A stretch of 64,000 nucleotides of DNA, taken from the NCBI GenBank assembly GCA_963799845.1, contig CAWCYI010000004.1, forward strand, positions 1,888,001 through 1,952,000, given 5' to 3'. Positions within the stretch are counted from its first letter, which is position 1, and the number at the start of each line of letters is the position of its first letter. Source of the stretch: an uncultured Nitrososphaerota archaeon (GTDB lineage Archaea > Thermoproteota > Nitrososphaeria > Nitrososphaerales > CADDZS01). The notes under the pieces are model-generated. The model was given only the letters and a program-made list of their open reading frames with translations, ran no database searches and was not told the DNA's origin. Positions 4,400-47,063 of the stretch are shown piece after piece. The position numbers were made by a program, and so were the translations under genes.

Positions 4400-4554
4400 T
4401 AAATTCGCCCTCTAATCCTTTCATTCGAACTTGGAAATAAAACAGTAATGTTTCCCATACGCAATTGTAACGAACGAAAGTTTCGAACTTTTCAATTCAA
4501 AATCTTGAGGTTTGACAGAATCCTTTACTATGTACTGATTGCTCGCTGTCCACA

Positions 4555-33536: not shown

Positions 33537-34043
33537 ATGGCCAAAAGTAAAGTTGCGATGCCAGCAATTAAGAAGGTAAAGAAGCCTGAGCTTGCCGTTA
33601 GAGAACCTCAACCCAGTTGGATTGAAGAGTTCAACAAATTGTCAGAACCGTTTCGCCTAATCCCCTGGGATCCCTTCAGAGGATTCGAGTGGCCTGTTGA
33701 ATATGAACTGCCGACGCGAGTACCCTACGTTGATGTAATCGACTCTGGCAACGAGTATGTTGTGAAAGTCGAGCTTCCCGGGATAAAAAAGGAAAATGTA
33801 GAGATTGAATTCGGGGCAAACGAATTGGTACTGAGTGCTAAATCTGATGTGGAAACGGAAGAGAAGGGAAAAAACTACTTGCATAGGGAAAGGGCATTCT
33901 CCACATTTCACAGACACATAGGCTTTGGCGAAAGTATAGATACAGAAAAAGTCTCGGCAAGCATGTCTGAAGGTATTCTCGAAATAAAACTTCCCAAGCT
34001 CGGACCCAGGCCTGAAAAGAAAACCAAAAGAATAACGTTATGA
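33537..34043 (+). CDS. hsp20: Small heat-shock protein Hsp20
   Basis: Alpha-crystallin domain: VELPGIKKE, RER...F, EGILEIKLPK, C-terminal IxL. Confidence 0.92.
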   Translation: MAKSKVAMPAIKKVKKPELAVREPQPSWIEEFNKLSEPFRLIPWDPFRGFEWPVEYELPTRVPYVDVIDSGNEYVVKVELPGIKKENVEIEFGANELVLSAKSDVETEEKGKNYLHRERAFSTFHRHIGFGESIDTEKVSASMSEGILEIKLPKLGPRPEKKTKRITL

Positions 34044-35399: not shown

Positions 35400-37055
35400 C
35401 TAGTCGCCCATGCCGCCATAGCCGCCCGCTCCTGGTGGAGGGCCTGCTGGAGCCCTCATCTTGCCTGAGGCGAGCACATCATCTATACGTAGTATCATGC
35501 AGGAAGCTTCTGTTGCTGCCCTAATTATCTCCTCTTTGACTGCGAGGGGTTCAATAACTTCATCCATCATGTCTCCAACTTTTCCCGTGCGCGCATTGAC
35601 CCCGAACCAAGTTTTTCCTTGAGTGTGCTTTGCTCTTAACTCGACTTTCACATCAATAGTCTCCATCCCTGCGTTCTCAGCGAGTGTGAGAGGGATCCTT
35701 TCAAGAGCATCAGCATACCTGAGCGCTGCTAGCTGTTCTCTGCCTGGAAGCTTTGAAGCGTAATCCCTCAACCTGGATGCAACTTCTGCTTCAGGAGCTC
35801 CTCCACCGGCAACAATCGCAGGTTCCTGCAAAACATCCTTTACAACCATGATTGCGTCGTGGAGACTCCTTTCTGCCTCATCCACCACTCTTTGCGAACC
35901 TCCGCGGACTAGAATAGTCAATGCTTTGGGATTCTTGCAACCTTCGATGAAGACCCACTTGTCCTGCTCAATCTTTCTTTCCTCGACGAGCTTTGCAAAC
36001 CCCAGGTCCTTCACAGATAGATCATCAAGGTTGGTTACAGTTCTCGCGCCAGTAGCTTTTGAAAGCCGAGTCATGTCGCTTTCTTTTGCTCTTCTAACAG
36101 TCAGTATTCCCTTTTTCGCCAACAAACTCTGAGCAATGTCGTCTATCCCTTTCTGGCAGATGAGAACGTTCGCGCCCGAGGATTCTATTTTTTCAACCAT
36201 TGATTGGAGCATCGAATTTTCTTCATCGAGAAAACCCTTCATCTGTCCAGGGGTGTTGATTCTGATCTCAGCCGAGAATTCCGTCTTTTCAATTTCTAAG
36301 GGTGAAAGAATCAAAGCAATCTTCGCATTCTCAATCCTTCTTGGCATGCCCGAGTGGACTATTTCCTTGTCCAATACTACGCCGTTGATGAGCATGGTAT
36401 CGCTGGTAGAGCCTCCTGCCTTCTTTTCCACCTTGATGTTATCAAGGTCCACCTTGTAGGTACCGTCTTCGTTTTTTTCAGCAACTTGCAGCATTCCTTT
36501 GACCACGATAGAGGAAAGCTCTTCTCCGACATCAGAAACCAGTTTTGTTTGCATGCTGGTCGCAGCGATTCTCTCAAGAGTTTTCCTATCGTCTGGTTCC
36601 ACCTTCACTGCGATTTCTTTCAGTATTGCAAGAGCTTTTTCCTCAGCCTTCATGTATCCGTCAACTATGATCGTTGGATGAACGTCTTTGTTGATCAGCT
36701 CTTCCGCATTTTCCAGAAGCGCACCCGCGAGCACTACTGCGGATGTAGTCCCGTCGCCGACTTCCTGATCGGTAGTCTTTGAAATTTCAACGAGCATTTT
36801 CGCGGCAGGATGTTGCACGTCGATTTCTTTGAGGATTGTTGCGCCGTCATTCGTAATTGTGACATCGCCCATGCCGTCCACCAGCATCTTGTCCATGCCT
36901 CTAGGACCTAGGGTGCTCTTGACGATCTCCGCAATAAGCTTCGCCGCAAAGATGTTGTTGCTTTGAGCGTCTCGACCCTTTGTTTGTGTAGAGCCTTCTT
37001 TTAGAATTAAGACCTGTTGACCCGATGATGTAGTTGCAGGAGTAAGAGTGGACAT
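35400..37055 (-). CDS. ths: Thermosome (group II chaperonin) subunit
   Basis: [24 protein letters not shown] and a GGM-like tail. Confidence 0.96.
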
Positions 37056-37113: not shown

Positions 37114-37252
37114 ACAAAAAGGCTGCAATATTAGGCAGAACCAGAGTTTGTGGTAAACACTTTCCTGAAAGTAATTTCCACTTTGATCCTTTTCCTGAAG
37201 CCTCAACTCGACGCAAACGTATTTTAGAAGAAAGCTGCTAGAAGCAAAGAGG

Positions 37253-37387
37253 ATGCCCCACTCGACAAAGCTGACCGTTCTTCACGCCAAGGAGAGCCTC
37301 CCGGATGGATGCTCTTGTCCCGACTGCAAGTTTCACATTTATGTTTCACAGTGTCAAGACGACAAATGCAAGTGCTGTTCGCAGTGA
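37253..37387 (+). CDS. 44-aa Cys-rich, metallothionein-like peptide (not in ORF track)
   Basis: MPHSTKLTVLHAKESLPDGCSCPDCKFHIYVSQCQDDKCKCCSQ; promoter-like CTCGAC-N5-CG-TATTTT at 37207. Confidence 0.65.
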   Translation: MPHSTKLTVLHAKESLPDGCSCPDCKFHIYVSQCQDDKCKCCSQ

Positions 37388-37477
37388 GAAACTCACGCAG
37401 GTCGACCTGAATCCTCTCTTCCCTGGTGCGAGAAGCCCAAGAAAAGTAAGCATTCGGTTTACGGGTTTTGGGCACGA

Positions 37478-38299
37478 TTATTTCTTCTTGCTTATTAGAA
37501 CGATGTGATATGATTCGGAGGTTAGCGGCGCGAGAGAACTAACACTTCCGAAGCTCCTGAGATACTCCCATCCTGACTTTCCAAGAAGCTCCCTTAATTC
37601 CTCGAAAGAGTAAGCTCTAAGCTGCCACTTGAGCGAAAATATGATGCTGTTACTGTCATGCATTCTTCTTGTCTCGTAGAATTTCCATTCGCTTTCCACA
37701 AAGGAGGTTTTCTGATTCAGCTGTCTCTCAGCCTCCATCTGAATCGTTTGAGAAATCTGCGAAAAACCGTAAGGACTGCAGTATCTAACGAGCCATTCTC
37801 TGTTAATAACGTCAAGAATTAGTATGCAATTGGAGGAAGCTAGGTCATGGAGGTCTTCGAGTACCTGGAGATCCTCTTTCTCTCCGTAGTAGCCGAAAGA
37901 ATTACCTATGCTCAGAATCGCATTGAAACCCGTCTCCCCTTTTTCGGAAAGGACACCAAAAACCTGTCTTACATCGCCTTGATAGAGTCTGACTCTTTTC
38001 TCACCTAGTTCACTTTGCTTTGCTAGGTGTTCTGCTTTGCGCAAACAATGTTCTGATAGATCAAACCCTACGACCTCGTAGCCCTCGTTGGCTAGCGCTA
38101 TTGCGTGGACCCCTATTCCACAGCAGAGGTCGAGAACCTTGGTTGCCAATGCTGGGATTTGCTGAAAATGTTTGCCAATTATCTTGCACAGCTGGGATGC
38201 TTCTTTCGAAGCGATCTGTTGGTGCGCTTCCATCCCAGGAAGGAAAAACTCTGGATGATCAACGAAAAGAGTACGCGTCCAATGCTCTTCTTTGGACAT
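37478..38299 (-). CDS. Class I SAM-dependent methyltransferase
   Basis: VLDLCCGIG, GFDLS, GDVR and NSFGY motifs. Confidence 0.88.
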   Translation of the reverse strand: MSKEEHWTRTLFVDHPEFFLPGMEAHQQIASKEASQLCKIIGKHFQQIPALATKVLDLCCGIGVHAIALANEGYEVVGFDLSEHCLRKAEHLAKQSELGEKRVRLYQGDVRQVFGVLSEKGETGFNAILSIGNSFGYYGEKEDLQVLEDLHDLASSNCILILDVINREWLVRYCSPYGFSQISQTIQMEAERQLNQKTSFVESEWKFYETRRMHDSNSIIFSLKWQLRAYSFEELRELLGKSGWEYLRSFGSVSSLAPLTSESYHIVLISKKK

Positions 38300-38388
38300 A
38301 GCTAACTTCCTCTTATCAGCTATGTTTCTGGGTTCTGGTAACTTACTTGCGCACAGAACAGCCCGTTAACCAGAGGGACACGGCTAGT

Positions 38389-38544
38389 TCAAGATGGAGT
38401 GTTTCCAGTTCTGATTTTATTCAGCGTAACGAGCTTTGCGCATTCATCGCAAACTCTTTCGAATTTTCCATTATATCGAACGGATTCCATATCTTTGACT
38501 CTAGTTGTCCGGTCGCATTTATGACATGTAGTAATACGATTCAA
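38389..38544 (-). CDS. 51-aa CxxC/CxxC zinc-ribbon microprotein (not in ORF track)
   Basis: MNRITTCHKCDRTTRVKDMESVRYNGKFERVCDECAKLVTLNKIRTGNTPS; TTG about 28 nt after TTAAAG. Confidence 0.65.
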   Translation of the reverse strand: MNRITTCHKCDRTTRVKDMESVRYNGKFERVCDECAKLVTLNKIRTGNTPS

Positions 38545-38746
38545 CGAGCTTTCACCCAACTAAGTTTCCTTTAAGATTTCTTCGGCTGTTTTTAGCCCAA
38601 ATTAAGCCAAGATCAAGCTTCGCTCTCGCCACTTCCTCATAAGCTCCTTCCTGAAACTGAAAGCGACAATACCAACTATAACGTTAACTTCTAGTCCGCC
38701 ATCGTCTTTGGGATTAACATGTCGAGATTTAAGAAAAAAGTCGGAC

Positions 38747-38767
38747 GGGCTGAAATTATTTCAGCCC
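38747..38767 (-). terminator. Perfect hairpin GGGCTGAAAT-T-ATTTCAGCCC with a downstream T-tract
   Basis: About 10 nt after the stop of the 38777 gene and followed by TTTTTT on the minus strand. Confidence 0.55.
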
Positions 38768-38776
38768 AGATTGCGT

Positions 38777-39199
38777 TCACTGAGAGTAGACTTTGATCTC
38801 GAAATCGCCAGTCTTCATATTGGCGTTGACTTCGAGACGACTCTTGGTCCCATTCAGCCAGGATAACTTCGGAGATTTAGTCATGTAGACATCTTCCCCT
38901 TCAGCCCATAAGCTTGTTGGACCTGTAATCTTCCCGTTTCCTCTACCATTGATGGCGACAAAGTCTCCCTCAACAGTGGTCTGTACAGCTTTAGAGTCCC
39001 ATTCGAGAGTTCCATCAACTTTTTGGAACATATTCACAGTTTCCAAGTGGGTCGCAGTGTACTTGCCCCCCACGAACTGAGCCTCGTTAATTAGCTCAAA
39101 TCTTACGCCCAAGGGCGTAATGTCCTTGATTGATCTTGATACTATATGACCGCGGATTTCTCCCATTAGTTCGCCTGTTTTTTGTGTTTGAGTTTGCAT
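38777..39199 (-). CDS. Hypothetical beta-rich protein
   Basis: Alternating beta-strand pattern and a KLSWLN motif; ATG at 39199 lies downstream of the conserved promoter. Confidence 0.7.
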   Translation of the reverse strand: MQTQTQKTGELMGEIRGHIVSRSIKDITPLGVRFELINEAQFVGGKYTATHLETVNMFQKVDGTLEWDSKAVQTTVEGDFVAINGRGNGKITGPTSLWAEGEDVYMTKSPKLSWLNGTKSRLEVNANMKTGDFEIKVYSQ

Positions 39200-39230
39200 T
39201 TTTTTCTCAGCTGCTACAGTGGGCAAGTTA

Positions 39231-39318
39231 CTTATACGCCTATGTCGAGTTAGAACGTTGCAGTTATCTAAATGCGATATTACCTGCCCTAAAGTGAGCT
39301 CGACATAGACCTATATAG
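39231..39318. promoter_or_regulatory. Divergent pair of conserved promoters CTCGACATAGRCN-TATAW
   Basis: Minus 39249-39231 CTCGACATAGGCGTATAAG; plus 39299-39318 CTCGACATAGACCTATATAG. Confidence 0.7.
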
Positions 39319-39339
39319 TACGACACACCCATTACATAC

Positions 39340-39504
39340 TTGCGAAACACATTGCAAACAAGAACATCATTGCCAACACCTGTATTAACACCAACCACAC
39401 CAAAAACAACAATAAAGCAGCGTGTGTCGCAGATATGCTCAAGAGCGCTACAGGACCTTTCACAATCTTTGTCCTATCTATGGCGCGTGATAGGAATCTC
39501 CTAG
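39340..39504 (+). CDS. 54-aa leaderless Thr/Pro-rich microprotein with an amphipathic C-terminal helix (not in ORF track)
   Basis: MRNTLQTRTSLPTPVLTPTTPKTTIKQRVSQICSRALQDLSQSLSYLWRVIGIS; TTG 28 nt after the TATA box. Confidence 0.5.
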   Translation: MRNTLQTRTSLPTPVLTPTTPKTTIKQRVSQICSRALQDLSQSLSYLWRVIGIS

Positions 39505-39701
39505 CTGGAATGCTTGGAGATATCTGCCAAAGCTAGGCAGTATACCAAGCGACTCTAGCTGACGTGGTGATTTGCATAGAGTAATGCATTACTCTGAGTC
39601 TGGTATTGTTTTTCGTTTATGTCAAAGGTACAATTTCTTCTATGTATGGATCTTTTCTAGTCTGTTCCGATGCCTGATTTTCTTATCCAATTCCAGAGTT
39701 C

Positions 39702-40647
39702 TCAGATTTTCATCGCATCCTTGAGTCCCTTGTACCTGTTTCTTATCGTAACCTCAGTAACACCCGCAGCCTCGGCGAGCTCCTTCTGAGTTATGTTATC
39801 ATTCTCCATAACGGAAGCAACGTAGAGCGCAGAAGCCGCTAGTCCCATCGGTCCCTTCCCAGCCGAACCATTTGTCTCTATCGTACGCCTGAGTATCTCC
39901 ACCGCCCTGCGCTTCGTCTTCTCCTGGACGCCGGCTTTGCTCGCTATCCTCGCGAGAAGCTTTACCGGATCAACAACAGGCACTCTGAGGTCAAGTTCAT
40001 TGTAGAGCAACCGGTAGCATCGAGCCAAATCCTTTTTCTTGATGTTACTGATTAGTGATAGATCTTTCAGATTACGAGGTGTTTCCGTATCTCTGCAAGC
40101 AGCGTAAAGCGAGGCTGCAATCATCCCGGAGATCGACCTCCCCCTGATCAACCCTCTTTCGAGCGCCTTCCTGTAGATGTATGCAGACTTTTTCGACTAC
40201 CAAGGCGTTGACGTTTAATTTGTCGACGAGTAGGCTGAGCTCACTGAATGCCTGACGCCTATTTCTGTCGGCAGACTCATGTACTTGCGACCTTCCGTCC
40301 CACGTGCGGAGCCTCTCAATCTGGGTCCTCATAGCAGCGGGAAGAAGCTTGCCGCTGGCGTCTTTATTCTCGAATCCTATGACCGTAGAAAGTCCCATGT
40401 CGTGAAGCGCGAGACTCGAAGGTGCGCCCGTATGAGCGCGCTGATTTGCTTCCTCGGTTGAGAATGCCCTCCACTCGCGTCCAGCATCAACAATTTGCTC
40501 CTTCAAAACATAACCGCAGTTGCTGCAGAAGAGTTCGGCTCCAGAAGAGTCAGTCACCATGGGACCCTTCGCGCACCTTGGGCAGCGGGCTCGTGTACCT
40601 TCGTGACGACTGAGATCCGTTGACGAATTTTTGATTCCGCCGCTCAT
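39702..40647 (-). CDS. tfb: Transcription initiation factor B; one frameshift at ~40187
   Basis: Zn ribbon CPRC...CSNC, B-reader EWRAF, two cyclin repeats and canonical GVTEVTIRNRY helix. Removing one base restores EKAAYIYRKA. Confidence 0.92.
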
Positions 40648-40686
40648 TCGGCTATAACATCCTCTGCACTTATTATCGAAAATGGA

Positions 40687-40848
40687 CTAGCGTCGTCTGC
40701 GTCCCCTGCGTAAAGATTGTTGAAGGGTAATCTGTTCGCAGACGGGACAAAGAAAATTCCCATGTTCGTCGATCCGGAACCTGATGCCGTGTTTAGTGCA
40801 AACCTTGGCTTGACCTATTGAATCGTTGCCGCTCACAGACGAAAACAT
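40687..40848 (-). CDS. Small Zn-finger protein with an Arg-rich tail, directly upstream of tfb
   Basis: CTKH...CPVC...RRGRRRR. Confidence 0.6.
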   Translation of the reverse strand: MFSSVSGNDSIGQAKVCTKHGIRFRIDEHGNFLCPVCEQITLQQSLRRGRRRR

Positions 40849-40903
40849 ATGTTCGCAGTATAAGGTGTTATCCCTCACAAACGATTCATGGTTTTTGGCA
40901 AAA

Positions 40904-41182
40904 ATGAAGCAGGTGGTTATCATCCAAAATATCGTCGAGTCAGCTTCTCTTGGGGGCAGGGCTCATCAGAAAGAAGCAGCGAGACAGCTCCCGAAATCTC
41001 TGTACGAGCCGGAGCAGTTTCCCGGCCTGATACACAGAATTGCGGACCCAAAAACGGTCATCCTGCTCTTCGCTCTGGGAAAGGTTGTCTGTATTGGTGC
41101 AAAGACGGAAACAGACGTGTACAGAGCAGTGAACAATCTTCACGCTACTCTTGAACAGAAGGGTCTGATGACTTATGCCTAA
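40904..41182 (+). CDS. tbp: Single-repeat (half) TATA-binding protein or TBP remnant
   Basis: IQNIV...YEPEQFPGLIHR...VILLFALGKVVCIGAK is one TBP repeat, the C-terminal one; own ATG and an upstream TATAAG. Confidence 0.75.
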   Translation: MKQVVIIQNIVESASLGGRAHQKEAARQLPKSLYEPEQFPGLIHRIADPKTVILLFALGKVVCIGAKTETDVYRAVNNLHATLEQKGLMTYA

Positions 41183-41400
41183 CTTGTCGGCGCCTAAAGT
41201 GAACAAATCGAAAAGGTTCAGCGGAATCCGTAAAATACGGCAGATACTTTCAATCGTATTTTTGTTCGTGATGGGAGCTGGGAATGCCACCATCGTCCAA
41301 AACCACTACCAAAATGGGCCATAGACTAATTACTAAGAGCAACGATTGAGAGCGAAATAGAGGCCATAATCTGCTGAACGGGGCAAACAGTGGATTGTGT

Positions 41401-41565
41401 ATGGCGCTTACAACAACATTAGTTAAACTCACGGAAAAAGTCATGGCAAGAATCGACAAATTCAAAGGACAGTTAGGCGAGGGAAAGTCAGACATGATCC
41501 GGACAAACGTCATCGCATCCCTGAGCAAGAAAGGGTATCTAAGGTGGGATGAATCTGAGCGTTAA
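41401..41565 (+). CDS. Ribbon-helix-helix (CopG-like) microprotein (not in ORF track)
   Basis: MALTTTLVKLTEKVMARIDKFKGQLGEGKSDMIRTNVIASLSKKGYL... Confidence 0.6.
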   Translation: MALTTTLVKLTEKVMARIDKFKGQLGEGKSDMIRTNVIASLSKKGYLRWDESER

Positions 41566-41728
41566 AAAAGAGCGAAAGAAACAAAACCGAGCGACTGATA
41601 AGTTGAGGGAAGAGGTTGAAATGCTCGACATCATGCTCTCATCATTGGTAGATGTTCTCGAAGAGAACCGAATCGTTGGCCATAAGGAGTGGGAGAACAG
41701 AATAAAGGAAAGGCTGAGTTCGAAGTAA
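41549..41728 (+). CDS. 59-aa helical protein overlapping the RHH gene (not in ORF track)
   Basis: ...MLDIMLSSLVDVLEENRIVGHKEWENRIKERLSSK. Confidence 0.55.
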   Translation: MNLSVKKERKKQNRATDKLREEVEMLDIMLSSLVDVLEENRIVGHKEWENRIKERLSSK

Positions 41729-41884
41729 AGGACGCACTTAGAGAGATGTTCACGCAAAAGTGATCGAGGGGATCAGGGCGGCAAAGGAGGCAAATGGATG
41801 GAAACAAAGACTGAGCGTAAGAACTAAGGAATTTGATGAAACGTAGACGGTGATCATCAAGACGCTTACTTCACTTCCCCTCCG

Positions 41885-42973
41885 CTACTGGGCTACACCC
41901 AGAGTGTTTCCGACTCCAACTATGAGTACGGTATCTCCTTCCTTTGTCTTTTCTTCTATTATCCTTTGAACGACCGCGACTGCTTTCTCTGAAGCCTCCG
42001 CGATTTCCTTGTTCATTACCGAAATAGCGTCGATAAGTGATTGCTTTACAACAACCGCGTACATCGGAATGTCCGCGTCGACAGCAGCCTTTTCAATCCT
42101 GAACTTTTCAACGCCGATTCCACCAATTGCTGCGCCGATACCTTCGGCGATTTCTCCCGTATTCTCGCCTTCGAGTTTTAGAGCAGCGTCTATCATTATC
42201 AGGGAGTCGACCTTGTTTTTAGTATCGCTCATTAGTTTCTCTACACCTATGTGAGGTCTACCGACAATGCCCATGGGTCCTTCAGCTTTCATAACGAGCA
42301 AATTGCGCCCCTTGTACTCGGTCTTTGAATATACAGTTTCGCGCTCGATTCCGATTTTCTCCATGCCATACATGAACTTACCCGCAACTATAGCTCCAAC
42401 TCCGTCGCCGATTGGCTGGGCTTGCTTGAACGCGTCAATTGCCCCAAACAGAGCATCGGCTTCCTGAAGCAAGATTGGCATTATCATCTGAAGTTGGACG
42501 AGGATGAAGTAGCTCTTTGTTTTCTGACCCTGAATGTAAAAGTGGCGCACGATCTTGAAGATCTGGTTCAGGCTTGTTGCGACTTCTAGAATGTTCTGAG
42601 CCACGCTGACTTGGATTCGATCTGCCTGCGGAGCCATGCGTCTGATTTCGTCACGAATCCTGTCATCCTGCAAAGTGACGACATGCCCAACCTTTCCAAC
42701 GAGCCCGTTCGGGTCCATACTAACTGGCATTATCGTGAAATATTCGAGAGTTTGTTCTATTCTTGGCTGTACTTCTCTTGGGACCTTGCAGTCGACTATC
42801 AGATAATCCAGCGCTTCCTTCTTGCTCTTTTCCCTTAGCGCACGTATCTTTTCCACGCCTGTCTTGACTTCCCGAAGAGCCGCGAAAGCCTGCATCCTTG
42901 GCCCCCAGAATAAGAAAAGGAACGTGGAACCCACGAATAGAAAGACGTAGACCAGTGTGGTGAGAAGGCTCAC
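41885..42973 (-). CDS. DUF1512 family membrane-anchored protein
   Basis: N-terminal TM with PIGDGVG, KAEGP...VGRP, IDAALKLEGE and GVGNTLGV motifs. Confidence 0.85.
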   Translation of the reverse strand: MSLLTTLVYVFLFVGSTFLFLFWGPRMQAFAALREVKTGVEKIRALREKSKKEALDYLIVDCKVPREVQPRIEQTLEYFTIMPVSMDPNGLVGKVGHVVTLQDDRIRDEIRRMAPQADRIQVSVAQNILEVATSLNQIFKIVRHFYIQGQKTKSYFILVQLQMIMPILLQEADALFGAIDAFKQAQPIGDGVGAIVAGKFMYGMEKIGIERETVYSKTEYKGRNLLVMKAEGPMGIVGRPHIGVEKLMSDTKNKVDSLIMIDAALKLEGENTGEIAEGIGAAIGGIGVEKFRIEKAAVDADIPMYAVVVKQSLIDAISVMNKEIAEASEKAVAVVQRIIEEKTKEGDTVLIVGVGNTLGVAQ

Positions 42974-43003
42974 GTTGCCGCCGAGAAGACTGGACGCGCT
43001 ACG

Positions 43004-45172
43004 TCACCTGTAGTACGAAACTGCGACCCTCTCCACGGGCTTGCCTTCCCTCGAACTCTTGACTTTGCGTATTGCATCCTCGAAGTGCTTCATCGTCACG
43101 GTTGCTTCAGCGGCATGCTGCTTCGCATCCTCGGGTTTCGGATAGGCGGCAAGGTACTCTTGGAGCACGAGCGAGATCGCAGTATTGACTACTGCAGTAA
43201 TGTCCGCGCCGCTGAATCCATCCGCCATTTCAGCAACTTTATCCAAATCAAGATCTGCGCCAATCTGCTTCCCTTTTGTCTGAATATCAAGAATCCGTCT
43301 TCTGGCATTCTTGTCCGGCTGCGGGATGTAGAGCAATTTGTCAAATCGCCCCGCCCTGAGGAGCGCAGGATCCACCATGTCCATTCTGTTGGTAGCGGCG
43401 AGAACCACAACGCCTGCCAGTGATTGTATTCCGTCGAGTTCTGTAAGCAGTTGACTCACGACCCTTTCAGTGACCATGCTGTCTCCGCCCAAACCTCTGA
43501 GTGGAGCTAGCGCATCGATTTCATCGAAGAAAATGATGCAGGGAGATGCCTGTCTCGCGCGCCTGAAGACTTCTCTCACACCCCGCTCCGATTCACCAAC
43601 CCATTTGGAAAGCAGTTCTGGTCCCCGTATGCTGATGAAATTGGCTTCGCTCTCTGTCGCTACCGACTTTGCAAGTAGCGTCTTTCCCGTCCCAGAGGGA
43701 CCGAACAGGAGTATCCCCTTTGGCATGCTGTAGCCAATCGCGTCGTAAAGGTCAGGGTACTTCATTGGCCATTCAACCGCCTCCTGCAGCTCCTTTTTGA
43801 TCGCGTCCAGTCCGCCAATGTCTGACCATCGTACATCAGGAGTTTCGATGAATACCTCCCTCATGGCAGAAGGCGTGATGTCCTTTAGGGCGTTCTGAAA
43901 GTCCTCATTCGTGACCTTAAGTTTGTTCAGAAATTCCGGTGTCAGTTTGTCTTCCTCAAGCTTGAGCTCGGGAAGCACGCGTCTGAGCGTTTTCATCGCT
44001 GCCTCCTTGCAAAGACCCTCGAGATCGGCTCCGACGAAGCCGTGCGTAACAGATGAAAGCTTTTCCAGATCGACTTCCTCGGTCAGCGGCATGTGCCTCG
44101 TATGAATTTGGAGAATCTCAAATCTTCCCTTCTTGGTGGGAACCTTGATCTCGATTTCCCTGTCGAATCTTCCTGGTCTTCGTAGGGCTGGATCTATTGC
44201 ATTCTGGCGATTTGTCGCAGCAATGACTATCACCTTTCCGCGCGCTTCCAGACCGTCCATGAGAGCGAGCAGCTGAGAGACCACCCTTCTTTCGACTTCC
44301 CCCGTGACTTCTTCCCTCTTCGGAGCGATGCTGTCGATTTCGTCTATGAATACAATTGTCGGAGCTTTCTCTCTTGCTTCCTTGAAAATCTCTCTCACGC
44401 GTGCTTCGCTCTCTCCGTAGAACTTGCTCATGACCTCCGGACCCGAGATGCTGATGAAGTGAGCGTTGCTTTCGTTCGCTACCGCCTTTGCGAGCAAAGT
44501 CTTCCCGGTTCCGGGCGTACCGTAGAGGAGTACTCCCTTTGGAGCTTCGACGCCCAACTTTTCGAAGATTTCGGGATGTCTCAAGGGAAGCTCGATCATT
44601 TCCCTGACTTTTTGTATCTCCTCTTTCATCCCTCCAATGTCTTCGTATGCGACTTGTGGGACCCCCCTCAATGTCTCGCCCTTTTCGGAGATCGCAAATA
44701 TCGTCTTCTGGGTGATCAAAACGGCGTCGGCCATCGGGCTAACTCCTAAAACTTGGAAAGTCAGGCGACCCCCGAAGTACGGAATCATGATGTTGTCTCC
44801 CTTTGTTACCGGCACGCTTTCGAGCGCGTCAGCTAGATACCTTTCATCAATCGGTGGAATGGCTTCCAGCGGTGAGACTACTACCTTTTCAGCCGGCGAC
44901 GCTTTGATCTTCTTCACGGTCACAGGATCACCAATCGCCACACCGGAGTTATTACGGGTCAGACCATCAATCCTTACCACACCTCTCCCCTCATCCGACG
45001 GATACAGAGGGAGACATTTGCCAACGGTTCTTCGTTTACCCTTCAACTCGACTACATCGCCGGTTGAGGCGTCAAGGGAGTCCATAGCGTCATAATCTAG
45101 TCTGGCGACGCCTCTGCCCACGTCTCGAGTGTAAGCTTCGAGAACCTTCAAAGTAACTCCTTGCTGACTCAA
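43004..45172 (-). CDS. cdc48: CDC48/VCP AAA+ ATPase
   Basis: N-domain, two AAA modules ([26 protein letters not shown]) and C-terminal YYR (HbYX). Confidence 0.96.
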
Positions 45173-45749
45173 TTGAAACGAGATTCCCGGGTGTGTGAGT
45201 TATTCTCATCTCTAGTATTACTGTCTTTCACAGCTTCTCAAAGTATGTTCACATCAGAACCAGCATTCCGGGATGATCACTGTTAGCTCCATTCGTTTGT
45301 CTCTCTATCCAAATCTCGCTTTCATCTTCCGGCAAGTCAAGGTAGTGATTACTTACTCAGAAGTGGCGTGGGAGTACCACAGCCATTCCATAATTGAAAC
45401 AATCAACTCCACAATGAAGAGGATATTCTTCTCTCCAATGCGGAAGATGCACGTTGGCGGAAAAGCTGTTTGATTAGAAAGGAAGTTGTCTTTCGTTGAA
45501 TCGGAGATTGATCTACGGATAGGGAGGTCCCTGAAGGTTCGCCTTCATCGCAGCTATAGCCTCTGTCGTCCGAGGAAAGAGGTACGTGTATGGTCTAGAG
45601 CCTGAAGAGGAAATAGGTCAATCCGATAATTGGTCAATGATAGTGACGTTTCCCCAGCCTCGAGGTATACTTTCTTTCCACTACTTTCAGCTCGTCGTGT
45701 ATCTACCCCTCGATAGTATAGGACGGACAGCACACCAATGTGGAGCGCC

Positions 45750-45955
45750 TGCTGTGCTCGAAAACCGACTGGAAGATCTCAGCCCCTCTCAGAGAAGATC
45801 GATGAGTTGGACAATCACCTGACTGGAAAATAGATGCGCAGGGAACCCCGTCCAAGCGAAAATGACAAGCGGCTCTCTGAGAAAATTGACGACCTAGACA
45901 AGCGACTCGACATCGTGTAGAGACTTGCCGTAGTCGAAGCTAAAGTAAGAGATCA
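45750..45955 (+). pseudogene. Coiled-coil repeat protein remnant
   Basis: LSEKIDELD...RLSEKIDDLDKRLDIV*RLAVVEAKV across frames, with a stop. Confidence 0.4.
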
Positions 45956-46552
45956 GGAGCAGGCAAGAAGGTAAGAATTTCCCAGCTGTTGCTGCCGAGC
46001 TTTTTCTTCCGATTCGCGCAATTCATCCTGCTGAATTCTGTTTATCAACAGCGGAAAAATACGATCGTCCTCTTCTTTTATGTGGACAGAAATGATTTTG
46101 TCTAGTTCCTCGATGCTAGACCAGCGGCTCTCCGCCATTGAATGTGTTGAGTCATGAAGATCCTTAAACGCTTCAGTGATCAATTTGTGCTGCTGAAACT
46201 CAGAAGTTATAGCTTCGTCTGATAATTTTTCTCCTCCAGAAATCTCAGCAAATACCACCGGCAGCTTGGACTCCTCGTCATAAATGTGCTTCTTCAGCAT
46301 AGCTTCTAGCTCGATCGCACGGTTTCTGGCTGTTTCGTAGTCCTGCCAGTCCTTCCTCGAGTCTAGCATGCGCAATATCCAGAGCTGTCGCTTAATTTCG
46401 TTGTGATCGCTTCTTAGAGTAGAAATGAGTTTTTTGGCTTCGTACATCTTCTGATTATTTCCAACGATATCTTTCAAGCGTGAACTTGATATATCAGGCT
46501 GCTTCTGGAGTTGGACGGTTTCCGAGCCATTTCTTCGATCGAAGAGATTCAT
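45953..46552 (-). CDS. Hemerythrin-like (HHE) domain protein
   Basis: DH...HIYDEE...QH...HIKEEDDRIFP metal-ligand pattern. Confidence 0.8.
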   Translation of the reverse strand: MNLFDRRNGSETVQLQKQPDISSSRLKDIVGNNQKMYEAKKLISTLRSDHNEIKRQLWILRMLDSRKDWQDYETARNRAIELEAMLKKHIYDEESKLPVVFAEISGGEKLSDEAITSEFQQHKLITEAFKDLHDSTHSMAESRWSSIEELDKIISVHIKEEDDRIFPLLINRIQQDELRESEEKARQQQLGNSYLLACS

Positions 46553-46585
46553 CTGTTATTCAGCATGTGTAATATTCATTACGTT

Positions 46586-46773
46586 GTATATACGCCTATG
46601 TCGAGTATAGCAAGGCCATAACTAACAGCTTGGCTCTCCGCACCTCTATCCTTCTTGACCAAACATCCTCTCTTGGACCTAGTTTAACGAGTCGGCCAGA
46701 TCTTAGAAACTCATATTTCCGCAGGTAGCCGTCTCATCGAAGCCGGGCCGTCACTTGACATAGACATATATAA
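46586..46773. promoter_or_regulatory. Second divergent pair of CTYGACATAGRCN-TATATA promoters
   Basis: Minus 46605-46586 CTCGACATAGGCGTATATAC; plus 46754-46773 CTTGACATAGACATATATAA. Both are followed by GTAAT-N4-RTTACA. Confidence 0.7.
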
Positions 46774-46805
46774 TGTGTAATGCTTGTTACATCATGTGAA
46801 AATTA

Positions 46806-47063
46806 ATGTTAACCAACATTTTTGACCCCGCAGATGAAGCATTCGGGAATATCTCCTCTGGAACGCTTGAGGGATTGATGAAAGATTTTCCCAGGCTGAA
46901 GGAGAAAACCGACAACAAACAAACAACGCAGGCGAAGACTCATGCAATGACGCCGGATAAAATGGACAGATTGTCTAGAAAGATAGAAGAAAACAATAAA
47001 CCATATCCTCTTAGCGAAGAAGAGGCAACGCCACAAGTCCCAACTTCAGATGAAACAGAGTGA
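46806..47063 (+). CDS. Hypothetical hydrophilic protein (85 aa)
   Basis: ATG downstream of the conserved promoter. Confidence 0.6.
   Translation: MLTNIFDPADEAFGNISSGTLEGLMKDFPRLKEKTDNKQTTQAKTHAMTPDKMDRLSRKIEENNKPYPLSEEEATPQVPTSDETE

Follow-up and report, generated by a model that had tools for sequence, protein, structure and literature searches.

The window analysed here, a 64-kb stretch of the genome of an uncultured soil archaeon of the Nitrososphaerales (G000), contains two divergent gene pairs whose upstream regions share one 18-nt sequence, CTYGACATAGRCNTATAW. It is present without mismatch at 39232-39249 (minus strand), 39299-39316 (plus), 46588-46605 (minus) and 46754-46771 (plus), and the window has no fifth site at two mismatches or fewer. 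Four matches compare with 0.03 expected, and none of 100 shuffles held four or more. In the whole 4.6-Mb genome YGACATAGRCNTATA occurs seven times and its reversed (backwards-read) pattern not at all. A preliminary description of this DNA had reported four near-identical repeats 28-40 nt before start codons. The repeats prove to be exact over 18 nt, and the gaps from their 3' ends are 32 nt to ATG 39199, 35 nt to TTG 39352 (23 nt to the in-frame TTG 39340), 35 nt to ATG 46552 and 34 nt to ATG 46806. A degenerate fifth copy at 37207 and a weak site before pip at 4511 had also been claimed, and these do not stand: neither gave a profile match even at E<=10 when the whole window was scanned with filters off, a scan in which, among the 15 matches returned, the four sites alone exceeded 8 bits. 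The promoters of the window's own thermosome (35400-37055) and Hsp20 (33537-34043) genes show a vague resemblance at most and were not counted.

The 18-mer is the upstream third of a promoter-plus-leader module of about 55 bp. The module consists, in order, of (C)GACATAGRY at the BRE position, a TATATAG box, the inverted repeat GTAAT-N4-ATTAC (14 bp, with its centre about 13 bp past the TATA box), some five variable bases, an SD-like GTGAAA and the start codon, 36-42 nt on from the initial T of TATATAG. CATAG, TATA and T..CA are invariant in an alignment of 12 copies. A profile of the module (R1) gave 34 matches at E<=0.1, 13 of them in G000, spread over seven of the 13 genomes of the family, a count that includes the unpublished genome G001 and is drawn from related genomes, which are not independent samples. 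Two matches were discarded as noise (E 0.066 and 0.078), and in 31 of the 32 left a start codon (26 ATG, 5 TTG) stands at module index 51-58. The inverted repeat (GTAAY-N4-RTTAC, 3-4 bp after the TATA box) is perfect in only seven of the 13 G000 modules, and the copies of the sp54, wHTH and barrel genes described below keep the ATTAC half alone, or less. Its 4-bp spacer (RCCT) and flanking bases are also conserved, which a simple symmetric operator would not need, and the bare palindrome is not over-represented across G000 (22 found, about 17.6 expected). The GTGAAA block resembles the remnant of an SD sequence; barrel paralogs of module-less genomes have GGAGGTGAAAA at this position. A viral origin of the module was rejected, as TATATAGNACGTAAYNNNNATTACA had 0 matches in viral contigs.

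The general promoter of G000 is TTAAATA with a weak A-rich BRE, in which the frequency of A is 0.36-0.44 over positions -4 to -6 relative to boxes of the TTAAATA type. This signal came from a filtered set of 1311 upstream regions, in which TAAATA was found in 75 (5.5 in controls) and TTAAAT in 61 (8.5 in controls); the unfiltered gene-start set gave none. The module differs from it and has the fixed (C)GACATAGRY before its TATA box, not a purine- or A-rich BRE. The objection that the repeats are simply the genome-wide consensus therefore fails, and the earlier proposals of a distinct promoter class for a dedicated gene set, and of a non-A-rich element at the BRE position, are both upheld.

In the first pair, the minus-strand module (39198..39250; R1 44.8 bits, E 5.8e-13; exact 18-mer) is made up of CTCGACATAGGC (39249-39238), TATAAGT (39236-39230), a diverged operator region and the leader GAGAAAAAAA, and ends at ATG 39199 of a 140-aa protein (38777..39199, minus). 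This protein has no Pfam match. Fold comparison of its AlphaFold model (pLDDT 92.3) points to an 8-stranded, DUF3237-like beta-barrel (Foldseek TM 0.77-0.82 to 3c5o and 3g7g) and gave no functional clue beyond that likeness; all 27 homologs are hypothetical. The module also precedes the G003 and G010 orthologs and a paralog at C4:1805508-1805560. The plus-strand module (39299..39352; R1 51.9 bits, E 3.6e-15; exact 18-mer) combines CTCGACATAGAC (39299-39310), TATATAG (39312-39318), the half-operator GACAC-N4-ATTAC (39322-39335) and a GCGAAAC leader. It serves a small protein of a family that we call sp54, 50 aa from TTG 39352 (39352..39504, plus), within an ORF open from TTG 39340 (39340..39504). 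Relatives have ATG where TTG 39352 stands, and the family, conserved in relatives, measures 50-54 aa. The module has a paralogous copy at C6:831604-831656 and an ortholog in G003, and the changes between sp54 and its paralog are, by eye, mostly synonymous.

In the second pair, the minus-strand module (46553..46606; R1 49 bits, E 2.8e-14; exact 18-mer; paralog at C6:1610873-1610926) contains CTCGACATAGGC (46605-46594), TATATAC (46592-46586) and the perfect palindrome GTAAT-GAAT-ATTAC (46582-46569) before ATG 46552. The gene (45953..46552, minus) encodes a 199-aa protein whose hemerythrin domain, as claimed earlier, is recognised by Pfam (HHE, PF01814, 7.3e-9), but whose N-terminal 39 residues are shared with another family. 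They are 62% identical to L023, a 142-aa member of an otherwise unrelated family of 140-145-aa proteins that is 53% identical internally and carries the module in relatives, so that the hemerythrin protein is a chimera. The plus-strand module (46753..46806; R1 42.1 bits, E 4.1e-12; exact 18-mer) has CTTGACATAGAC (46754-46765), TATATAA (46767-46773) and GTAAT-GCTT-GTTAC (46777-46790), and the GTAAT-N4-RTTACA motif described for this pair is thus found in both of its members as GTAAT-N4-RTTAC. Its 85-aa ORF (46806..47063, plus) has no Pfam match and contains a fasciclin piece (BLASTP, 64% identity over 28 aa to a G012 fasciclin, E 4e-12). Intact fasciclin genes with the module occur in G000 (C6:555068), G005 and G012, and the ORF probably represents a regular member of the regulon whose gene copy has decayed. 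The "beta protein" and two small unknowns of the preliminary description can thus be refined to a DUF3237-like barrel, an sp54 protein and a fasciclin remnant.

Beyond the window, module targets include an extra thermosome paralog and Hsp20 besides fasciclin, the hemerythrin chimera, the DUF3237-like barrel and several tiny proteins, and their Pfam domains are HSP20, Fasciclin, Cpn60_TCP1, HTH_45 and Hemerythrin. Together they form a putative regulon of about 12 promoters in G000, a stress and chaperone gene set centred on chaperones. The thermosome follows the module after a small ORF of 32-46 aa in six genomes (G000, G001, G002, G003, G010 and G012) and directly in G005; in family f14 a TATA box and palindrome precede a 35-aa ORF and then a thermosome gene. 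The module-linked thermosome paralog (at least 75% identity) is confined to the seven module-bearing genomes, the other six reaching 70% at most. HSP20 carries the module in G000 and in L079. The wHTH (HTH_45) gene at C6:491287 has the module in G000 only. It was considered as an autoregulating regulator and dropped because its orthologs at 12 other loci use a different promoter. AmoA was not found in G000 (86.7% complete) by a search that was positive in f12 and f15 genomes, and amoA is likely to be absent from G000.

Next to the thermosome copy of the module, and divergent from it, is a single-copy gene (C6:1189092-1189799 in G000) for a 236-aa protein with a helical N-terminal domain and tandem ACT domains. 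This gene is divergent beside the module in G000, G001, G003, G005, G010, G012, G039, G089, G119 (partial) and six metagenome loci. The exception is G002 (70% complete), where the module-thermosome operon is present and no ACT protein is detectable. Within the family the protein occurs in six of the seven module-bearing genomes, again counting the unpublished G001 among relatives that are not independent samples, and in none of the six module-less ones. Across the order, 67 of 151 genomes have a homolog. Among ammonia oxidisers the ACT gene adjoins Hsp20-CDC48 with the palindrome in between. A divergent ORF was recovered at 36 of 40 further ACT loci (HSP20 in 24, a RAM-domain protein in six, thermosome in one), and Hsp20 is followed by CDC48 (CDC48_N+AAA) at all three fully read ammonia-oxidiser loci, although one Hsp20 falls below 1e-6. 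In 17 of the 40 loci an exact GTAAY-N4-RTTAC stands 88-108 nt before the ACT gene, and those 1.7-kb loci contain no other. With one mismatch allowed, the palindrome was present in 26 of 39 target segments of the ammonia-oxidiser loci, against 0 of 156 control segments. It was found in loci of families f14, f19, f11, f18, f4, f12 and f15. Across the order, conservation reaches furthest for this palindrome, which lies downstream of TATA, and less far for the BRE-position element, whose GACATAG was not seen in Nitrosopumilus-type loci. The genomic sequences show palindrome, chaperone gene and ACT protein located together across families.

Residues 77-223 of the protein form the tandem ACT domains and match, over residues 80-221, the regulatory domain of aspartokinase (6mx1_B; Z 13.4, rmsd 2.9, 138 residues aligned), and Pfam finds ACT_7 (8.4e-7, 29.2 bits, cut-off 27). 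The N-terminus scores 17.4 bits to DUF7523, below the cut-off of 27, and precomputed PF24367 (DUF7523) annotations stand on many Nitrosopumilus homologs. Four helices are modelled in residues 8-67; the N-terminal ~75 residues had no fold match in structure searches, whose matches were filled by the ACT part, and an Atlas structure search with the protein returned only unnamed Nitrososphaerota clusters. The homodimer model scored 0.63 against 0.00 for the best control, a mark that 20 of 30 solved homo-pairs and one of 23 single chains attained; contacts agreed to at least 75% between runs and pLDDT was at least 79. This pass may reflect likeness, because the solved structures include many ACT dimers. 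No paper mentioning DUF7523 was found in literature searches.

We interpret the module as the promoter of a stress regulon in which the palindrome would be the operator and the 236-aa ACT protein is probably the regulator, with a logic like that of Phr (see below), and we put the probability of this reading at roughly 0.55. The palindrome would be bound by a dimeric regulator at the place where RNA polymerase would be loaded, a position that suggests repression; once bound, the regulator may keep the promoter occluded, and a stress or metabolite signal would release it. The ACT protein would be this DNA-binding regulator. In this lineage the module would then have spread to unrelated genes, sometimes taking a few codons along and giving rise to chimeras. 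The GACATAG element is not accounted for by the repressor model. The preliminary description had invoked an alternative TFB/TBP or an activator: the first is unsupported, and a specific DNA-binding regulator comes closer, but as a suggested repressor, not an activator.

The module could also be an unregulated strong promoter cassette, copied by duplication and recombination and conserved by descent and selection for strength, with no dedicated regulator. Its boundaries are sharp, with no similarity upstream of CGACATAG or past the first codons, and in short-read contigs homology breaks at 39301, the 5' edge of the module. Chimeric and decayed targets are also what copying would leave (the hemerythrin N-terminus, the fasciclin remnant and, at G005:C55, a 98-aa ORF that begins like a thermosome), as is a wHTH gene with the module in one genome. 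However, in eight families or more the TATA-palindrome core stands before chaperone genes and in every case adjoins the ACT-protein gene, a distribution that copying inside one lineage cannot explain. Conservation is blockwise with variable positions between the blocks, the pattern expected of binding sites, and promoter strength does not call for twofold symmetry. We regard a cassette of this kind as unlikely.

Unrelated genes share the conserved GACATAGRC element, which occupies the BRE position exactly and might be a specialised BRE read by a TFB paralog or a half-TBP; the level of that factor would then switch the genes, as at haloarchaeal heat-shock promoters. G000 has about eight TFB paralogs, two TBPs and one half-TBP, and one TFB and the half-TBP are located between the two promoter pairs. 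There is a precedent in Halobacterium hsp5, where, according to PMC2396416, the BRE and TATA box suffice for heat induction and bind TFBb/TFB2. The distribution of the factors argues against this explanation, which we consider unlikely. Homologs of the adjacent TFB, 76-96% identical, are present throughout the 13 family genomes, the six module-less ones included, and no TFB paralog was seen to track the module in a comparison that profiled the adjacent TFB individually. The half-TBP has no half-sized counterpart in the 12 relatives. The palindrome is also kept over far greater distances than GACATAG, and with the same regulator-like neighbour gene. A specialised basal factor and a repressor are not mutually exclusive.

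That the inverted repeat works as a hairpin (such as a thermosensor or protein-binding stem) in the 5' leader of a transcript begun further upstream is very improbable. RNA thermometers classically act on chaperone genes, and the palindrome could form a 5-bp stem with a 4-nt loop, seen in the MFE fold of the 46753-46808 copy. Yet the four modules of the window fold no better than shuffles (z -0.23, 0.98, 0.15 and 1.34), half of the modules are without one arm and show no compensating change, the loop or spacer sequence is itself conserved, and TATATAG has the canonical spacing to a start immediately before GTGAAA.

Extending the repressor reading to the whole order is more tentative, and we hold it at somewhat less than even odds. 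DUF7523-ACT proteins and their operators would constitute an undescribed stress response of Nitrososphaerales, the ammonia oxidisers that abound worldwide included, in which a dimer sensing an amino acid or energy-status ligand may bind GTAAT-N4-ATTAC in the core promoters of Hsp20-CDC48 and thermosome genes. The soil lineage would have added the BRE-position element, and about a dozen unrelated genes would have captured the module. When Ca. Nitrosopelagicus brevis is limited for ammonia, two genes are induced about 10-fold, and one of them encodes an Hsp20, as given in bioRxiv 10.1101/175141. Hsp20 and thermosome are among the few ammonia-oxidiser genes reported, in the accounts consulted, to respond to starvation or inhibitor stress, and literature searches found no chaperone-controlling transcription factor for Thaumarchaeota/Nitrososphaerota. 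The analysis offers a testable candidate triplet of regulator, operator and target, present in cultivable Nitrosopumilus and Nitrososphaera-type organisms, a list of about 12 putatively co-regulated genes in an uncultured soil lineage, and a route by which an archaeal promoter cassette can reach new genes. If the interpretation is true, the DUF7523-ACT protein would supply the heat-shock or starvation regulator that has long been missing for the phylum, and the soil lineage would be a live example of archaeal regulon growth by promoter propagation, with chimeric genes arising on the way.

Several known systems resemble parts of this arrangement. NrpR of methanogens is a dimeric, metabolite-sensing repressor that acts at nitrogen operators on an inverted repeat, GGAA-N6-TTCC, just downstream of TATA; its protein family, operator and regulon all differ from those of the candidate circuit. 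In Nitrososphaera viennensis, a soil member of the same broad group, regulon-specific upstream motifs were likewise obtained by comparing upstream regions (Reyes et al. 2020, PMC7785015). The copper-responsive motifs given there, TTCSGSMTTTGWACYANT and RATTTAAABATAGATTTAAATAATAAS, are unrelated to the module and belong to different gene sets. Halobacterium hsp5 (TFBb/TFB2) is similar in being a small heat-shock gene whose distinctive BRE and TATA box set the response, as the module pairs an unusual BRE-position element with a strong TATA box; according to PMC2396416, sequence downstream of TATA did not matter there, whereas the most conserved element of the module is palindromic and lies downstream of TATA. 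A further likeness is to Phr of Pyrococcus furiosus and other Thermococcales, described in PMC10746257 as a repressor that binds a palindrome and controls hsp20, VAT and other genes. The operator sequence is not the same, and Phr is of the winged-helix type, whereas the candidate here combines a DUF7523-like helical domain with tandem ACT domains and is not a Phr homolog, a Pfam scan of the candidate protein giving ACT_7 and sub-threshold DUF7523. The present system, known from sequence alone, belongs to mesophilic soil and marine Nitrososphaerales and takes in the thermosome and many non-chaperone genes. Both have a palindrome, here a candidate operator, in the core promoter of heat-shock genes, and where the Phr regulon of PMC10746257 comprises Hsp20 and an AAA+ CDC48/VAT ATPase, the palindrome here precedes Hsp20-CDC48 in ammonia oxidisers and thermosome or Hsp20 in this family. 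The negative control of otherwise strong promoters described there for Phr is the logic that we propose for the module.

The 18-mer CTYGACATAGRCNTATAW, put forward in the preliminary description as the promoter element of two divergent gene pairs, is present without mismatch at all four proposed sites in the window (39232-39249 and 46588-46605 on the minus strand, 39299-39316 and 46754-46771 on the plus strand), against 0.03 expected, and no fifth site is found there at up to two mismatches. A profile of the ~55-nt promoter-leader module to which the 18-mers belong, scanned against the window unfiltered at an E cut-off of 10, gives these sites 42-52 bits and nothing elsewhere above 8 bits, leaving a suggested fifth copy at 37207 and a weak site before pip without support. 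The core YGACATAGRCNTATA has seven copies in the whole source genome (G000; 4.6 Mb in 9 contigs, 47% G+C), of which the window is C4:1888001-1952000, and the same pattern read backwards has none. The three core copies outside the window each lie upstream of a paralog of a window target gene, three of the four targets being represented. Four genomes from the genus or family of G000 have the exact core too, with fasciclin genes among those downstream of it.

Crude gene calling with a hexamer score gave 4136 non-overlapping ORFs, from which 1311 were kept whose first ATG lies no more than 60 nt from the upstream in-frame stop and whose 100 nt upstream contain no other gene. Between -60 and -15 of these, TAAATA (75 against 5.5 in distal controls) and TTAAAT (61 of the 1311 regions against 8.5) are enriched, as are TTTATA and CTTAAA. 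When the 197 regions containing such boxes were aligned on them, the sole flanking signal was A at a frequency of 0.36-0.44 at positions -4 to -6, indicating that the ordinary promoter of this genome is TTAAATA with a weak A-rich BRE. The GACATAGRC-N-TATAWA class is rare and distinct from it, and is not merely the genome-wide consensus promoter, a possibility the preliminary description had itself raised. Genome-wide counts of upstream words also brought out a repeat of 12-14 copies containing AGGGCCACAGACCTAGACATTCTC and a second containing TGGCCAACTTCCC, both 15-60 nt before ORF starts, which are probably an insertion sequence or other repeat family.

In an ungapped alignment of 12 copies, conservation spans ~55 nt and comprises (C)GACATAGRY, one base, TATATAG, NAC, GTAAY-N4-RTTAC-A, about 5 variable bases, a GTGAAA-like block, 4-8 bases and the start codon; the copies compared have no similarity upstream of CGACATAG. 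A sequence-only covariance model of the module (R1) has 34 matches at E<=0.1 in seven of the 13 genomes of the family (six of 12 without G001, which is unpublished), G000 accounting for 13. The weakest two, at E 0.066 and 0.078, have none of the conserved blocks and were dropped. The start codon is at module index 51-58 in 31 of the 32 retained matches (26 ATG and 5 TTG, the latter assigned by homology with ATG in relatives) and at index 67 in the one exceptional copy. In a family-weighted logo excluding the four barrel-gene copies, information is found in CATAG, TATATAG, ACG, TAA and CTATTACA. Barrel-gene paralogs of module-less genomes have GGAGGTGAAAA in place of GTGAAA, and GTGAAA is therefore read as the remnant Shine-Dalgarno of a putative leader of ~10 nt. 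An excerpt of one study places the TATA box of thaumarchaeal amo genes 23-24 nt from the ATG (PMC3379541), and the longer distance in the module fits such a short leader. As RNA, none of the four window copies folds more stably than shuffles (z -0.23 to 1.34). DUF3237-like paralogs without the module (loci L092-L094 and L097-L102; G004, G007, G011 and G000 contig C6:477169) share an upstream block ATCGTATTC...TTTATTAG, and these L loci have a full GGAGGTGAAAA Shine-Dalgarno besides.

The bare palindrome GTAAT-N4-ATTAC is not enriched in G000 (22 found against ~17.6 expected), and the seven copies that follow a TATA box are every one a module. The GACATAG element is confined to the soil lineages (families f1, f18 and f19) and is possibly either a BRE of a specialised kind or an additional half-site.

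The window targets are a 140-aa protein of no Pfam family, modelled (pLDDT 92.3) as a DUF3237-like eight-stranded barrel (TM 0.77-0.82 to 3c5o and 3g7g), a 50-54-aa protein kept in relatives, a 199-aa hemerythrin-domain protein (PF01814, 7.3e-9) and an 85-aa ORF. The module copies elsewhere in G000 are followed by genes for Hsp20, a fasciclin-domain protein and a 100-aa HTH_45 winged-helix protein, and by ORFs of 33 and 35 aa. In G005 it lies immediately 5' of a thermosome gene, and in G000, the unpublished G001, G002, G003, G010 and G012 it precedes a 32-46-aa ORF with the thermosome gene no more than ~15 nt further on. The thermosome behind the small ORF starts MAQQASYATT (G000 copy Cpn60_TCP1, 1.6e-186), and this paralog, at >=75% identity, is found only in the seven module-bearing genomes; the six module-less genomes of the family have only housekeeping paralogs (62-70% identical), a type whose canonical TTTAAATA promoters are quite unlike the module. 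Family f14 has R1 matches to the TATA-plus-palindrome part in 3 of 15 genomes, followed by a 35-aa ORF and a thermosome gene. The 21 loci from a metagenome scan for TATATAGNACGTAAYNNNNATTAC include an Hsp20 ortholog carrying the complete module and three double RAM-domain proteins of 172 aa; viral contigs gave none.

The small ORFs before the thermosome are basic (32-46 aa, ending ~13-15 nt before its start; C6:1188881-1188988 in G000), have equivalents in G001, G002, G003, G010, G012, G039, G089 and G119 (MRIEQR...FDNKF..RKP or MKTIQPRK...), and may be leader peptides or small chaperone-associated proteins. Upstream of the MSQGQ-type housekeeping thermosome (L127, L131, L136-L139 and L145) is a strongly conserved CGATAAT-TTTAAATA followed by the direct repeat GGTTAGTGTC-N5-GGTTAGTA, which looks like another regulatory site.

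Several targets appear to have acquired the module by promoter capture. Residues 1-39 of the hemerythrin protein are 62% identical to a 140-145-aa family that bears the module in relatives, with no similarity beyond, and all that the 85-aa ORF retains of a fasciclin is 28 residues. The module precedes the HTH_45 gene in no genome but G000, another promoter being present at 12 orthologous or paralogous loci, and homology with short-read contigs of related strains breaks at 39301, the 5' edge of a module. These observations point the same way, suggesting that the cassette has been relocated before new genes in this lineage, at times with a few codons. In contigs of two short-read runs (X1 and X4), position 39301, the exact module 5' edge, is joined to sequence near 39751/39793, and in some contigs the A-run before the ATG at 39199 lacks one base, as in the paralog. 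Downstream of C6:1610873-1610926, a paralog of the window hemerythrin gene is open for 91 aa only, owing either to decay or to another assembly indel.

The rare module, its fixed distance from the start codon and its chaperone-centred target set bear out the dedicated regulon claimed in the preliminary description. That an alternative TFB or TBP reads this promoter class, as was also suggested, is unlikely. There is haloarchaeal precedent, an excerpt of PMC2396416 describing the BRE and TATA of hsp5 as read by heat-induced TFBs, but homologs of the TFB adjoining the promoters occur at 76-96% identity across all 13 family genomes, and the best matches to the half-TBP in 12 relatives (74-82%) are the second repeat of full-length TBPs, with no half-sized ortholog found among them. 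About eight TFB paralogs were found in G000, together with two TBPs and one TBP of a single repeat. The TFB gene at 39702-40647 on the minus strand is split into two overlapping frames (191 and 149 aa) with the break near 40187. At 40187 the contigs of three short-read runs (X1, X2 and X4) are shorter by one base and lack the frameshift, and in G003 the ortholog has an intact frame of 326 aa, so the split is probably an assembly indel and not a pseudogene. The half-TBP (40826-41182, plus strand) has a single PF00352 repeat in an open frame of 122 aa, and paired compensating indels at 40966/40970 in related contigs hint that this frame is maintained.

The reading we favour is that a regulator encoded beside the module acts on its palindrome. 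The candidate is a 236-aa protein, encoded once in G000 (C6:1189092-1189799), divergently from the thermosome-operon module and 56 nt from its 5' edge. It matches ACT_7 (8.4e-7) and, below threshold in its N-terminus, DUF7523. By tblastn, its gene adjoins the module in G000, G001, G003, G005, G010, G012, G039 and G089, in G119 (partial copy) and at six metagenome loci. Within the family the protein is found in six of the seven module-bearing genomes (five of six without the unpublished G001) and in none of the six others; the exception, G002, is 70% complete. The ACT gene has a TTAAATATTAC promoter of its own, arranged back to back with the module so that GACATAG falls between the two divergent TATA boxes.

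In the predicted structure of the ACT protein (pLDDT 80.7), residues 8-67 form four helices and two ACT-like units come after them. Residues 77-223 resemble aspartokinase regulatory domains (Z 13.4, rmsd 2.9, 138 aligned), also by Foldseek, and structure searches with the full model gave no match reaching the N-terminal domain. The predicted homodimer pairs symmetrically via the N-terminal helices and ACT units with a score of 0.63 against 0.00 for the best control (contacts agreeing by at least 75% between runs, pLDDT at least 79). Solved homo-pairs attained this mark in 20 of 30 cases, single chains in 1 of 23. Since ACT dimers are common among solved structures, this score may reflect likeness rather than evidence.

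Of 151 sampled genomes of the order, 67 have a homolog of the ACT protein, among them all 24 from f12 and 12 of the 23 from f15. These two families are ammonia oxidisers (AmoA in both f12 and all three f15 genomes tested); AmoA was not found in the searched genomes of G000, f14 (three), f9 (one) and f19 (one). Proteins of the f12 type are named 'ACT domain-containing protein [Nitrosopumilus ...]' or, erroneously, 'aspartokinase' at source. In f19 and f11 the ACT gene is divergent from a thermosome gene with AGACATATC-TATATAG-TAC-GTAAT-N4-ATTAC, and at three fully read ammonia-oxidiser loci it is divergent from Hsp20, followed by CDC48 (CDC48_N and AAA in all three, HSP20 at 1e-6 in two). Upstream of the ammonia-oxidiser Hsp20 are TTTATATAA-TGTAAT-N4-ATTACA and a GGTG Shine-Dalgarno.

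Forty further ACT-gene loci were fetched as 1.7-kb stretches. In 17 of the 40, a GTAAY-N4-RTTAC without mismatch is found 88-108 nt upstream of the aligned ACT-gene start and nowhere else in these stretches, ~0.26 being expected over all 40. With up to one mismatch the palindrome is found in 26 of 39 target windows (one short locus omitted) against 0 of 156 control windows of equal size, and TGTCAT-N4-ATGACA replaces it in some lineages. A divergent ORF of at least 90 aa is present at 36 of the 40 loci, encoding HSP20 (24), double RAM-domain proteins (six, all f9), a thermosome (one), a nitroreductase (one) or no family at 1e-5 (four). Stand-alone double RAM-domain (AsnC_trans_reg) proteins of 169-173 aa recur as partners of the ACT protein and targets of palindrome promoters (G039:C7, L164 4877-5398; f9 loci L183-L187 and L212; metagenome loci L071, L083 and L086), which suggests amino-acid sensing in the circuit.

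The explanation as a whole, a module with an operator and an ACT regulator, has in our estimate a probability of roughly 0.55, all of the evidence being sequence comparisons between related genomes, many of them incomplete MAGs. It is based on the rare and sharply bounded module, the fixed start-codon distance, the chaperone-centred targets and the order-wide co-location of palindrome, chaperone gene and ACT-protein gene. The module is very probably a regulon-specific promoter and the palindrome is likely to be a protein operator, while the odds that the ACT protein is the factor binding it are about even. Counted from the expected start, the palindrome would cover roughly -19 to -6, a region in which Phr and other archaeal repressors block polymerase recruitment. 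The ACT protein would bind the palindrome as a dimer, and a ligand or stress would free the palindrome of it. Amino acids are typical ligands of ACT and RAM domains. An excerpt of bioRxiv 10.1101/175141 reports ~10-fold induction of two genes in ammonia-limited Ca. N. brevis, an Hsp20 being one of them, and Hsp20 and thermosome are up in N. viennensis under an inhibitor mimicking substrate limitation, according to an excerpt of PMC13674081. Together with the domain ligands, these responses point to energy or nitrogen status as a possible signal, instead of or besides heat.

In the open-access papers and preprints searched we found no description of the module motif or of DUF7523, and no chaperone regulator for this phylum. 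The Cu-limitation motifs of N. viennensis are unrelated to the module. The system resembles the Phr regulon in its palindromic operator, Hsp20 and AAA+ ATPase, as judged here from sequence comparison, but its operator is another one and its candidate regulator belongs to the unstudied DUF7523-ACT family. By analogy, the arrangement appears to work like the Phr regulon, yet it is not a member of it.
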